Translations under genes and position numbers: made by a program
Source of the DNA: a virus
Taxonomy: Duplodnaviria > Heunggongvirae > Uroviricota > Caudoviricetes
Virus record (IMG/VR): IMGVR_UViG_2923286960_000001
Length of the DNA stretch: 44,339 bases
Reading direction: 5' to 3' (one strand)
Shown here: positions 3,966 through 7,511 of the stretch, one piece after another
How the letters are laid out: every line of letters starts with the position of its first letter
Position numbering within the stretch: position 1 is the first letter of the stretch
The notes under the pieces: model-generated
What the model saw: the letters and a program-made list of their open reading frames with translations, nothing else
Told to the model about the DNA's origin: nothing
Databases searched by the model: none

Positions 3966-4426
3966 TTTGCTGCTCCTCATCATATCGACCCTGCAAGGTC
4001 GGTTGGTTTCTCCACAAAACAGAGAAGAACACCTGCGGTGGCAGCCGCCCGGATGGATTGGGTTATGAGCCCGTCGTCCGGTGATGCTCTTCTCTGTTTT
4101 GTAAAAAGAGCGGTGCCAGCCGGAAGCAAGTGTACAAACTGGTACCGCCAAAGCAGTGGCTGTTGTGGTGCCGGGTGCCTCCCGGTGCCTGGCGAAGGTT
4201 GCACACCAGGCGGGTGGGTATCCACAGAAGGTCGACTGTCAGCCTCAACCTTAACCCGCGTGCGCTGAGCCGCATTCACCACAACGCTAAGGATTCTCTC
4301 TGGTTGAAAATACTTAGCTGTTATGTGCCTGCTTTTAGCCACATCAGGCGAGGTGGACCTGGTTATTCCCCAACAACAAGGATTCGGTTAATCTTGATAC
4401 CCCCAATAACATGGTGATTATTTAAG

Positions 4427-4930
4427 ATGGACAAATTTGATAGAAGTGCACAAAGGCAGTTGTTACAAATACTGTATGATGCTCATCCTTATGAAATTTC
4501 TGATGATGCGTTGCAGTCTGTTCGTGACGCATTTGGAGATGATAATGTCCTAATTTCGAACTTAATTTATCTCGAAGAACATGGCTTGATTAAGAATGCT
4601 CTTGATTATTACTTGGATGGCATAAATATAAATATTCCTGAATTAAGAATTACTAAAGATGGAATTGATTTCATTCGTGATGATGGAGGTCTTAAAGCTA
4701 TTCTTGGGATTATGACAATAAGATTGCATGATGAGACTCTCTGTGAACTTGAACGTATCATCAATAGTTCTACTTCTGCCACGACTGAAGATAAGAAGAA
4801 ATTACTCTCTCAGCTTCGAACGCTTCCTGCCGACGCCATAAAACAGCTGACGATTCGATTACTTGGTCAGGGGCTTGACCATCTGCCGGACGTATTTCAC
4901 GTAATTCAAAAAGCCCTCCATTCTCTGTAA
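4427..4930 (+). CDS. hypothetical protein (167 aa), AT-rich moron of unknown function
   Basis: 504-nt ORF in low-GC DNA where stop codons should be frequent; globular-looking sequence; followed by an intrinsic terminator at 5108-5134. Confidence 0.5.
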   Translation: MDKFDRSAQRQLLQILYDAHPYEISDDALQSVRDAFGDDNVLISNLIYLEEHGLIKNALDYYLDGININIPELRITKDGIDFIRDDGGLKAILGIMTIRLHDETLCELERIINSSTSATTEDKKKLLSQLRTLPADAIKQLTIRLLGQGLDHLPDVFHVIQKALHSL

Positions 4931-5107
4931 ATTCTGATTCTGGTCGGATTAGACAGAATCGTCCCCATCCGACCTGCTTACTAAGTAGAATCCAGAATTC
5001 GTCTTGTTGGTTGGTGCTGATAAAAAATCCATTAGGATGAACGTAAGCACAGAATATGACCATAGAACCCTCTTTTGTTACGGGGATACTAAGATTGTTA
5101 AAGAGCT

Positions 5108-5134
5108 AAGCGTCCTGTAGGGCGCTTTTTTGTT
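5108..5134 (+). terminator. rho-independent terminator downstream of the 167-aa ORF
   Basis: Hairpin AAGCGTCC-tgta-GGGCGCTT followed by TTTTTTGTTG. Confidence 0.55.
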
Positions 5135-5219
5135 GCTAACGAATCATCCGGTCATTCATACGCCACCGGCGGCTACTTCGTGGGCGTCCTGCCTGTCCGT
5201 GATAGCTTACATTATGTTG

Positions 5220-5232
5220 CTACTTAAAGTAG
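5220..5232. promoter_or_regulatory. candidate OL operator (perfect 13-bp palindrome CTACTTAAAGTAG)
   Basis: Same half-site (CTAYTT/AAGTAG) as the two repeats between cI and cro; a second inverted repeat lies at 5240-5268 (CAACAACAAA-n9-TTTGTTGTTG). Confidence 0.45.
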
Positions 5233-5410
5233 CAAAAATCAACAACAAAAAGTAGATATTTGTTGTTGTCTATGATTTTTCTATAATTAATTGAAAGTTA
5301 AATGTTTTTGCTGATTTACTATGCTGTAAACTGAAAATATCGCACGAAGTTGGAGTAGGTATTGAGCATAGTGAATTATGAGGAGGGAGTTTTTTATGAG
5401 ATTAATCAGG

Positions 5411-5446
5411 GAGAAAGAAGAGGAAAGCCCGGTTATGCGGCCGGGC
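5411..5446 (-). terminator. candidate terminator after the ParA-like gene
   Basis: GCCCGG-n8-CCGGGC hairpin right after the stop, followed on the minus strand by a U/C-rich tract. Confidence 0.35.
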
Positions 5447-5453
5447 ACATGCA

Positions 5454-6530
5454 TTACTTTGTAAGTTCTAGAACTCGTTGAGCCAGCCCTTTAAATTGTT
5501 CGTTAAAGGCGTCTCTGCTTGATTTCATTGTATTTAAGGCATGCCCAAATTGCCCTGAATCGCGAATTTGCTGATCACTGATGGAGAAAACAGGTGTCGC
5601 TAGTTGTTGGCTTATTGCGATTAATGAGTTGAAATCGGAAATATGCGCAAGATCATAGGCTGATAAATCTCCACTGACTGTTGTTTTGTTAATTGCATGT
5701 TGCACTTTATCTCGTGGAATTATGCAGGTAATTTTTTCTAGATTTGGCACTAAGATCGAATCAACAGCATCACGGATAGCTGCCATCCATTTTTCGAAAG
5801 ATTTTACAGGTGCTCCTTTACGCGGCCTGTATCTCTGCTGAATCATACCTAGAAACTGCGGTGCATTTTTAATTGATTGTGAAGAGTTACCATCATTATT
5901 TTCTTTAAATAATGCTAATTCTTTGTGCCAGCGAGGTATATTTTTTGAGAGAGAGCGAATTGCTTGCCAGCAAAAAAAGTCTGGAGCTACAGGTACGATA
6001 AAATAGTCACTTGACATGAGAACTACTTCATTTAAACCTCCAACATTAGGGCTGAGATCATAAAGAATGTAATCAATATTATTCTTCATGGCGATTAGCT
6101 GTAATATTTTTGGCAGGTTCCCTGGTATATTTCTTGTAGCAGGAATACCAGCAGCAATTTTTAGAGAAACACTTATCTGTGAATCTAAGTCCGAAACATC
6201 TAAATGTCCGGGAAGAAGCAGAAGGTTTTCATGCAGTGTAGGGTGTAATTTTCCCGTTTCTTTTTCAAGGTATGCTTCAGGTTGTCCGCCATTAATCAAA
6301 TATTCTACAATAGGTCCAAGAGTTAAGTTATCTCTGCTAGAATAAAAAGAATCTAAACCCTCATCAATCTTTTCATAGCCAAGAACCATTCCTGTTAGAT
6401 TACATTGCGAATCAAGGTCAACCATCAATACTTTCTTGCCTTCATCCGCAAGTGCCCATCCAAGATTGAAGGTTGTTGTGGTTTTACTTACCCCACCTTT
6501 ATGATTAAAAAAACAAATTGATTTTGTCAT
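5454..6530 (-). CDS. ParA/MinD-family P-loop ATPase with about 100-aa C-terminal extension (orphan, no ParB)
   Basis: Deviant Walker A KGGVSKTT at residues 11-18, A' motif MVDLDSQ, Walker B-like DYILYDLSPN; AAGGA SD; low GC; lies downstream of cI on the same strand. Confidence 0.85.
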   Translation of the reverse strand: MTKSICFFNHKGGVSKTTTTFNLGWALADEGKKVLMVDLDSQCNLTGMVLGYEKIDEGLDSFYSSRDNLTLGPIVEYLINGGQPEAYLEKETGKLHPTLHENLLLLPGHLDVSDLDSQISVSLKIAAGIPATRNIPGNLPKILQLIAMKNNIDYILYDLSPNVGGLNEVVLMSSDYFIVPVAPDFFCWQAIRSLSKNIPRWHKELALFKENNDGNSSQSIKNAPQFLGMIQQRYRPRKGAPVKSFEKWMAAIRDAVDSILVPNLEKITCIIPRDKVQHAINKTTVSGDLSAYDLAHISDFNSLIAISQQLATPVFSISDQQIRDSGQFGHALNTMKSSRDAFNEQFKGLAQRVLELTK

Positions 6531-6700
6531 ATTTCTCTATCCTTTCGACCCCCAGCATATTGTAATTTACGCTGGGTGATTATTTTATATTGTTAATGAT
6601 AATGTTTAATAAAAATAAGAGAGTAAAACAACTATTAGTAATAGCACTTGCTTGATAAATATTATTTTTTCACCTTTAGTTCTATAGTCTAAACGAAGAA

Positions 6701-7441
6701 CTAAAGCCGGTTGTATTTAATTGATTCGTGTATCAATGCTTTGCCCATAACATAAAGTTGATCTTGGGACTTCTCATCAATGTACCATTTCTCATAGGCT
6801 GGATTATCCGAAAGAACGGCGAGTTTGTTGCCTTGCATTTGTAGACGTTTAACGTGGAACGTCTTACCATAAACGAAAGAGTAAACACCATCAGTTTGGA
6901 AGTTGCGAACAGAAATGTCGACAAACAGTCGATCTCCGGAAACTAGAGTAGGGGACATGCTGTCGCCATTTACAGTCATAACTTTAATATCATCTTGAGA
7001 ACGATTACCGAAAAGAGAACGGGCATGCTCTGTTGTGAACTCAATGGCGTAGAGCACATCAACATAGTCTGAAAGCATATAGGTTCCAGGTCCTGCGCTA
7101 ACGCTAAGATCCAAAACTTCTATCCTGTATACATCGGGTTTTGTTGGATTGGGGATGCTTGCCATTTCCTTACATCCTTCTCTCTCGCCAACACCATATT
7201 CTAAATATGAAGCTGATACCCCCAGAGCCAATGCAAGTTTATTCATGACAGAGGCACGAGGCTTCGCAGCGCCGATTGTGTATCGCCGCGCCATTTCATA
7301 TGTAACGCCCACAAGACTTTTGAGTTGGGTGACAGAAATTCCCTTGTTTGTCATTAGCTCGTTTAGTCTCTTGGCGAAATCTGGATACTTCTGTTCTTCT
7401 ACCATAGGTAGAAGGTTACTCGCATCACATACGCTAGTCAT
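6701..7441 (-). CDS. cI: CI-like prophage repressor (HTH plus S24 LexA-like autopeptidase domain)
   Basis: N-terminal HTH (ISVTQLKSLVGVTYEMARRY), C-terminal Ser/Lys dyad (VNGDSMSPTL ... VKRL). Start uncertain: ATGs at 7462, 7441 and 7405; 7441 chosen because it abuts the operator repeats (leaderless PRM-like). Confidence 0.8.
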   Translation of the reverse strand: MTSVCDASNLLPMVEEQKYPDFAKRLNELMTNKGISVTQLKSLVGVTYEMARRYTIGAAKPRASVMNKLALALGVSASYLEYGVGEREGCKEMASIPNPTKPDVYRIEVLDLSVSAGPGTYMLSDYVDVLYAIEFTTEHARSLFGNRSQDDIKVMTVNGDSMSPTLVSGDRLFVDISVRNFQTDGVYSFVYGKTFHVKRLQMQGNKLAVLSDNPAYEKWYIDEKSQDQLYVMGKALIHESIKYNRL

Positions 7442-7443
7442 TT

Positions 7444-7479
7444 CTATTTTAAGTAGTTGCATTCTGCTATTTTAAGTAG
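7444..7479. promoter_or_regulatory. OR-like operator repeats between cI and cro
   Basis: Two copies of CTATTTTAAGTAG (7444-7456, 7467-7479); a further palindrome CCTCTGAATTTCAGAGG at 7487-7503 just upstream of the cro SD. Confidence 0.5.
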
Positions 7480-7511
7480 CATCATCCCTCTGAATTTCAG
7501 AGGAGAAAGGT

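Follow-up and report, generated by a model that had tools for sequence, protein, structure and literature searches.

The DNA analysed here, referred to as the window, is a stretch of 44,339 nt (IMG/VR record IMGVR_UViG_2923286960_000001) corresponding to an Escherichia coli lambdoid prophage integrated beside a tRNA-Arg gene, and a stretch identical to it is annotated in strain B-2207, accession NZ_CP117959.1, where the cassette lies at 259,5xx-260,2xx, as well as in many other genomes. The present analysis deals with two convergent genes of its immunity region, designated A and B, together with the exchangeable segment that carries them. Judged from sequence comparison, this pair forms a mobile cassette that is widespread and whose two genes overlap in antisense over a long dual-coding stretch, the second of them being unannotated. 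The locus comprises:

4427..4930, plus strand: gene A, ATG start, 167 aa, acidic; RefSeq WP_000357060.1, annotated as 'hypothetical protein'
4770..5063, minus strand (5063→4770): gene B, unannotated open reading frame (ORF) of 97 aa (MVIFCAYVHPNGFF...GWGRF...VLWRRQEA...), convergent with gene A
4770..4930, both strands: dual-coding overlap of 161 nt, made of the last 53 codons and stop of A and the last 52 codons and stop of B
5064..5072, minus strand: segment with the Shine-Dalgarno (SD)-like GAGGG (5072->5068), 4 nt upstream of the gene B ATG, as read from the sequence
4410..5091, no strand: exchangeable cassette, with approximate break-points taken from a three-way DNA alignment
5108..5134, plus strand: intrinsic terminator located by scan and folds, an 8-bp G+C-rich hairpin followed by U6

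Gene A had been pointed out in an earlier note made from the letters of the window, as an AT-rich ORF of 167 aa at 4427-4930, and it is present exactly there, with an ATG start on the plus strand. The base composition of about 35% G+C that was given for it is recovered in 300-nt windows across the gene (35%), the whole ORF standing at 37.9% (30% at third codon positions) vs. 51.4% for the whole window. Gene A is a real gene because comparison with homologues of 56-77% protein identity gives a ratio of nonsynonymous to synonymous substitution rates (dN/dS) of 0.15-0.36, with dS saturated, and because it belongs to a large, length-conserved family. The designation of orphan, on the other hand, has to be abandoned: residues 1-165 align with profile positions 1-164 of 165 of phrog_3983, a phage family of unknown function (E=2.6e-59), and an exhaustive profile search retrieved 1,138 representative clusters of the gene A family, nearly all of them stand-alone proteins of 155-175 aa. 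Sequence and profile searches of Pfam, NCBIfam, PADLOC and PDB gave nothing significant for gene A, and literature searches on WP_000357060.1, phrog_3983 and convergent overlapping prophage genes found nothing relevant.

The second gene and the dual-coding overlap

The 180-nt gap between the gene A stop and the terminator holds the 5' half of gene B, and the 160 nt past that stop are conserved between loci with protein sequences that have diverged past saturation of synonymous sites; on this sequence evidence the gap is not a 3' untranslated region (UTR). Using tblastn, gene B was found to adjoin gene A in almost every fetched locus and always with the same geometry, its ATG lying 133-139 nt past the gene A stop in most lineages, with an SD-like motif of 4 nt or more ahead of it. 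Since antisense frames of conserved genes can look conserved trivially, the two halves of gene B were tested apart. Outside the overlap, its first 44 codons have a median dN/dS of 0.22 over 59 pairs, 97% of which are below 0.5, with dS saturated. Inside the overlap, where codon position 1 of A faces position 1 of B on the opposite strand, 34 of 35 clusters of at most 80% identity show no stop in the gene B frame over the 40 final codons of A, as against 1.4 expected from synonymous resampling of A codons (P~1e-55, for clusters that share ancestry though synonymous sites between them are saturated). Each of the other two antisense frames over the same stretch is open in 2 of the 35, the A-B frame relation being constant. 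The synonymous rate of gene A itself falls from 2.25 outside to 0.94 inside the overlap, a drop seen in 96 of 99 pairs, and the share of identical codons at identical gene A residues rises from 38% to 57%.

It is because of the low dN/dS outside the overlap, and of the open frame and lowered gene A dS inside it, that the overlap is held to be dual-coding and gene B to be real; these comparisons show the A-B overlap to be under selection and identify gene B as a genuine protein-coding gene. The view of the earlier note, a single-gene moron with its own terminator, would require the minus-strand frame to be a by-product of the gene A sequence or of a structured 3' UTR. Annotation pipelines call only gene A, and the antisense frames of conserved genes can indeed seem conserved, but constraint on 44 codons lying wholly outside A with saturated dS, an ATG and SD motif at a fixed distance in most lineages, a frame open 34 times where 1.4 are expected and a halved synonymous rate of A in the overlap make this explanation extremely improbable.

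Regarding the product of gene B, no family match was found in Pfam, PHROG, PADLOC, NCBIfam or PDB; a weak match to the PADLOC model PDC-M06B appeared in 3 of 24 gene B members, with a best E of 0.0034. Among 5.8 billion proteins gene B is represented by only 5 clusters, and none of the RefSeq and GenBank annotations examined includes it. Protein B is predicted to be soluble and acidic, with an isoelectric point (pI) of 4.9, no transmembrane segment and a maximum 19-residue hydropathy of 0.71.

Long antisense overlaps between coding genes are regarded as rare in bacteria and phages, with strong support for only a few. The experimentally supported antisense overlapping genes of E. coli O157:H7, which likewise involve a long ORF antisense to an annotated gene and missed by pipelines, are reported to rest on RNA-seq and ribosome profiling (PMC9927249, PMC6294744). 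The evidence for A and B is instead evolutionary, with the same geometry recurring across dozens of diverged lineages of a mobile phage cassette, and gene B is only half embedded. The evidence is also comparative and quantitative, and bears on a gene that is effectively missing from protein databases. If the pair is a module of mutually silencing genes as considered below, gene B, missed in hundreds of phage genomes, would rank among the best evolutionarily supported long antisense overlapping genes of bacteria or phages. The case shows that gene callers intolerant of overlap systematically hide genes of this kind, and the pair lends itself well to testing antisense control and gene birth by overprinting.

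Linkage, distribution and placement of the cassette

A pattern derived from the non-overlapping half of gene B (N-terminal motif) retrieved 80 loci in a scan of viral contigs, 78 of which are true B according to a hidden Markov model; gene A lies alongside in 74 of these 78, and the other 4 end at a sequence edge. Among 23 chromosomal loci from different species, B was detected in 12 and a diverged B-like frame in about 3 more, a truncated remnant of B persists in one (L216), and about 6-7 distant lineages have no B-like frame. Gene B never occurs without gene A, whereas gene A can stand alone; an obligate pair in both directions was ruled out by these 6-7 chromosomal lineages with A and without B. 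Decayed copies were also encountered: an in-frame stop interrupts gene B in L015 (VG*GHF) and an internal stop gene A in L077, just the overlapping 3' part of B is left in Kluyvera cryocrescens (L216), and L010 is without B.

Relatives of gene A are encoded on 568 IMG/VR contigs and occur in temperate phages of Edwardsiella, Pseudomonas, Klebsiella, Acinetobacter and Halomonas, and a scan of one genome per species places the family in Gamma-, Beta- and Alphaproteobacteria. On plasmids it was met in 5 of 72,556 records, 2 of which are mis-filed chromosomes, and on no typical plasmid. The gene A family is phage-restricted, and temperate phages of Enterobacterales, Pseudomonas, Acinetobacter and other Proteobacteria commonly carry the pair as cargo.

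In the window, the cassette is inserted between PL/OL, the putative leftward early promoter and its operator, and the early-left operon. In sister E. coli prophages the flanking sequence is nearly the same as far as about 4410 and again from about 5092, but the gene in between is an unrelated one:

L006:3463-3978 (E. coli O103:H2 12009): alternative cargo WP_000559922.1, 171 aa, in the same slot as 4410-5091 of the window

Counted over E. coli genomes, the terminator segment is present in 768, the alternative cargo in 646 (complete genomes) and the A/B cassette in about 75. By its sequence, the alternative cargo looks like an N-terminal coiled coil followed by C-terminal CxxC...CxxC motifs, and belongs to no Pfam or PADLOC family. 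A 13-nt inverted repeat, AATCTGGATATCC ... GGATATCCAGATT in consensus, brackets the slot at 4389-4401 and 5082-5094; it is degenerate in the window and clearer in L091, L093 and L094, lies about 25-35 nt upstream of the start codons of A and B, and is present around the alternative cargo too. As a general element for recombination or RNA pairing it was ruled out, being found in 4 of 34 lineages, all with the enterobacterial slot.

Elsewhere, the placement of the pair varies. At least 70% of the surrounding genes are on the strand opposite to gene A in 26 of 33 non-redundant IMG/VR loci; the co-directional neighbours are cI-type repressors, Arc and Bor (the latter in one related locus), and those on the opposite strand Q antiterminators, holin, lysozyme, tape measure and primase. 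This orientation, together with the co-direction with repressors, is only suggestive of gene A expression from the repressed prophage. No annotated partner recurs beside gene A, the largest neighbour cluster being seen in 4 of the 33 loci, and a conserved partner among annotated neighbours was ruled out on that count. The gene A homologue lies downstream of cI in Acinetobacter AbIPP1, between Rz and the small terminase gene in PhiR49_2, and between the early-left operon and cI, as in the window, in Mangrovibacter and Kluyvera prophages. In Edwardsiella phage GF-2 it stands behind an Mnt/Arc-like gene in an immI-like region. At 4729-5643 of the GF-2 locus (L002), there is a 4-nt overlap between gene A and the stop of the Arc/Mnt-like gene, and gene A diverges from an Arc-Ant pair, which is the place of sieA in P22; the cassette therefore lies within a secondary-immunity region, itself set inside the cluster of tail genes.

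Morons in the sense of Hendrix and colleagues, of which bor and lom of lambda and gp15 of HK97 are lambdoid examples, are extra genes inserted among those of the backbone; each has a promoter and a terminator of its own, the base composition is often unusual, and expression takes place from the prophage. Like them, the A/B cassette is a low-G+C insertion opposite to lytic transcription, followed by a terminator and carried as exchangeable cargo; unlike them, the unit consists of two convergent genes with 125-218 nt of coding sequence in common, the terminator is part of the shared slot, and expression of A in the lysogen is presumed from layout. The moron layout proposed in the earlier note stands as to deviant base composition, exchange of cargo between conserved backbone genes, orientation against early transcription and a terminator downstream, and has to be amended in that the unit is two genes, not one. 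Comparison of sequences shows the A/B pair to be mobile accessory cargo of moron type. As for the terminator, which was thought to be the gene's own, the hairpin and U6 are found on the plus strand at 5108-5134, the scan placing the terminator-like site at 5108-5127 with a T-run after it (on the minus strand there is a weak hairpin and no U-tract), but they lie beyond the start of gene B, in backbone DNA common to the prophages with alternative cargo, and thus belong to the shared slot and not to the cargo. The possibility that B generally has a hairpin terminator directly upstream was also considered and dropped, a strict scan giving no support and arrangements being variable.

Predicted proteins, transcription signals and proposed mechanism

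An AlphaFold2 model of protein A, built with 112 sequences, reached a predicted local distance difference test score of 86.9. It comprises a winged helix (residues ~6-84), a hinge G-I-D-F-x-R-D-D-G-G-L (79-89), which is the most conserved motif of the protein, and a C-terminal four-helix domain. Protein A has, in this model, a winged-helix fold, with the winged helix-turn-helix that characterizes PadR/MarR-type regulators. The Pfam and NCBIfam models of PadR, MarR and YjcQ do not match it even at E<=1, and no PDB sequence does; moreover, its winged-helix domain is strongly acidic (pI 4.4, net charge -9), and PadR, MarR or YjcQ winged-helix matches have no counterpart of its C-terminal domain or of the DF-RDDGGL hinge.

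The sequences that could direct transcription of the two genes are the following:

4394..4421, plus strand: candidate gene A promoter, TTGATA-16-GATTAT, with 9 of 12 consensus matches
4368-4376 and 4401-4409, plus strand: paired direct repeats CCCCAACAA and CCCCAATAA, 33 nt apart, at -59 and -26 from the gene A ATG; candidate operator
5218-5234, minus strand: OL operator palindrome TGCTACTTAAAGTAGCA, matching copies at 7444-7456 and 7465-7481 between cI and cro
5216->5211, minus strand: -10-like CATAAT adjoining OL, part of the putative leftward PL

With 5 nt between the -10 element of the candidate gene A promoter and the ATG, the mRNA would be leaderless or nearly so, and a -35-like TGGATA is conserved in five related loci. 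The paired repeats recur at this spacing and position in 6-7 of 34 lineages and are lineage-limited; the repeat word changes jointly in both copies from one lineage to another (CCCCAACAA, ACCCCTACA, AATTCCAA), and this co-variation would count for sequence-specific DNA binding by A as a dimer, with the repeats as candidate operator. The OL proposed by the earlier note is borne out by the match of its palindrome to the two copies between cI and cro and by its co-variation with the cI allele in the three-way alignment; the statement that gene A runs against leftward early transcription is upheld by the same match to the right-operator copies (7444-7481). From OL, PL would thus read leftward through B in sense and through A in antisense.

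The mechanism favoured here, if with slightly less than even confidence, is that of a two-gene cassette in which A is made in the lysogen and B acts as its lytic-phase antagonist, each transcript being antisense to the other. Gene A would be transcribed from its own promoter to the terminator at 5108-5134 and so made in the lysogen, and its mRNA, if ending at 5134, would be complementary to all of B including the ribosome-binding site. A B-sense transcript, most simply running from PL through the one-way hairpin, would be antisense to A. Mutually exclusive expression would be expected because the A mRNA covers all of B and the B-sense RNA runs through A; suppression could occur by antisense pairing or polymerase collision, with A prevailing in the lysogen and B after induction, since in most phages B is oriented like the surrounding lytic genes and A against them. 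Protein A would then be a winged-helix factor of the lysogenic phase, most likely a DNA-binding regulator or an exclusion factor, which would benefit the prophage and hinder its own lytic growth, and B would be the off-switch for A at the RNA level and probably at the protein level as well. A lysogen-phase A with an off-switch B fits best because A is sometimes found alone and B never, because the family is nearly absent from plasmids and because the cargo slots lie by immunity and late genes.

More specifically, this could be a new kind of mobile phage module, with coding genes on opposite strands and mutually silencing transcripts, which would both report and enforce the state of the prophage and where A, for example, serves exclusion or defence in the lysogen and B disarms A when the phage turns lytic, a possibility that is put forward with real reserve. 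Genes expressed in lysogens for exclusion or defence are known by immunity regions, namely rexAB of lambda and sieA and sieB of P22, as well as BstA with its aba self-immunity element. The A/B pair occupies comparable positions, namely downstream of cI, after an Mnt-like gene or in the space from PL to the early-left operon, which are the usual places of exclusion and defence genes, and the proposed logic is like theirs, a lysogen-phase function shut off for the phage's own lytic growth. None of them has sequence or profile similarity to A or B, the defence role of A is a proposal, and the off-switch of BstA is a DNA element whereas here it would be a protein-coding antisense gene. If the pair is indeed switched on and off with the state of the phage, it would be a compact, portable means for a prophage to confine a function to lysogeny.

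Several points weigh against the favoured mechanism. Neither protein fits a catalogued defence system in PADLOC-DB v2, the only match for A being CARF_m5 (E=0.013) and that for B the weak one to PDC-M06B given above. An acidic winged helix, at pI 4.4, is unusual for a DNA-binding domain. The number of promoter-like sites in the region, of the kind attributed to gene A, is not above shuffled expectation, and no promoter can be recognised for gene B itself. Since the repeats upstream of A are found ahead of the unrelated alternative cargo too, they may not be the operator of A, and the terminator arrangement beside B differs between lineages.

Among other explanations, a toxin-antitoxin or abortive infection system, in which B is a small soluble toxin, A the antitoxin, binding DNA by its N-terminal domain and neutralising B by its C-terminal one, and the long antisense 3' UTR of A an additional type I-like RNA control, so that loss of A on infection or stress releases B, would account for B never occurring without A and for A occurring at times alone, in the manner of orphan antitoxins; the layout of A, a DNA-binding domain with a helical C-terminal domain, is antitoxin-like, and the pair sits in a prophage cargo position. 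In the type I pairs txpA/RatA and bsrG/SR4 of Bacillus subtilis prophage-like elements, the convergent transcripts overlap at their 3' ends. The A/B pair is likewise convergent prophage cargo, its 3' complementarity exceeding 100 nt (161 nt of coding overlap, with predicted transcripts) and one predicted transcript covering the translation start of the other gene. Unlike those pairs, both transcripts encode conserved proteins under purifying selection, in Proteobacteria, and where a type I system has a small hydrophobic peptide and a non-coding antitoxin RNA, protein B is a soluble acidic protein of 97 aa that matches no toxin family and is without hydrophobic segment, and the opposing 'antitoxin RNA' encodes a conserved protein of 167 aa. 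Type II systems consist of two co-directional operon genes, whereas A and B are convergent with 3' overlap and form no operon, and neither has a match to a toxin-antitoxin family in Pfam, NCBIfam or PADLOC. With a gene A family virtually absent from plasmids and a consistent orientation relative to lytic genes, needless for a free-standing addiction module, the toxin-antitoxin explanation appears unlikely.

Alternatively, A could be a portable regulator of secondary immunity or of the lysis-lysogeny decision and B its Cro-like counterpart, together a self-contained bistable switch feeding the decision circuit of the host phage. The place of the pair beside cI in the window and in Mangrovibacter, Kluyvera and Acinetobacter phages, or behind the Mnt/Arc-like gene of the immI-like region of GF-2, agrees with it, as do the convergent antisense design and the candidate operator repeats; yet the pair is often located in the late region (Rz/terminase, Q/lysis genes, tail genes), and sister prophages that have an unrelated gene in its stead show no evident loss of viability, a dispensability not expected of a core circuit, which leaves such a switch rather improbable. 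Were B the effector, acting in host takeover or anti-defence during the lytic phase, A would only silence it in lysogens, as a repressor and by antisense RNA. The co-orientation of B with lytic genes, the predicted coverage of its ribosome-binding site by the A transcript and the winged-helix fold of A are consistent with this role, but B is never found alone, e.g. in a virulent phage or without A, while A persists without B in several lineages, the reverse of what a mere silencer would show, and A is the larger gene and at least as conserved; a primary effector role for B is accordingly regarded as very doubtful.

Setting of the cassette in the prophage

From left to right, the window carries the integrase gene, the early-left genes yfdT to yfdP (minus strand), the A/B region, a ParA-like gene (minus strand), a cI-type repressor gene (minus strand), cro and the early-right genes. 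The gene across OL from the cassette is:

5454-6530, minus strand: ParA/AAA_31-like ATPase gene, 358 aa, between OL and cI and co-directional with cI

Its G+C content is 37.7%, a terminator-like site of its own lies at 5446-5427, and PADLOC returned for its product a P-loop-level match to PDC-M28B only; its place between OL and cI is that of rexAB in lambda. The idea that it forms a 2-kb low-G+C island with gene A is not tenable, the two being independent modules: gene A is present in about 75 E. coli genomes, the ParA-like gene in 108 and both in 59, and Mangrovibacter and Kluyvera prophages have gene A in the same site without the ParA-like gene. A two-gene system made of gene A and the ParA-like gene was ruled out by the same independent occurrence.

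Between yfdP and the cassette, about 440 nt (3980-4420) of ~54-56% G+C have no convincing ORF; this stretch may be a structured leader of the early-left operon, and it is probably through it that most of the 2,813 E. coli genomes matching part of a 4000-6700 query were retrieved. On the minus strand at 4164-4283, it gives a match to the Rfam small RNA family STnc100 (35.6 bits, E=2.9e-05), below the gathering score of 47. Finally, the cI-type repressor ORF (6701-7462, minus strand) encodes 253 aa from its first ATG, the RefSeq version having 705 nt (234 aa); the operator copies 7444-7456 and 7465-7481 fall at or inside the 5' end of the longer ORF, and the shorter start is favoured for this reason.
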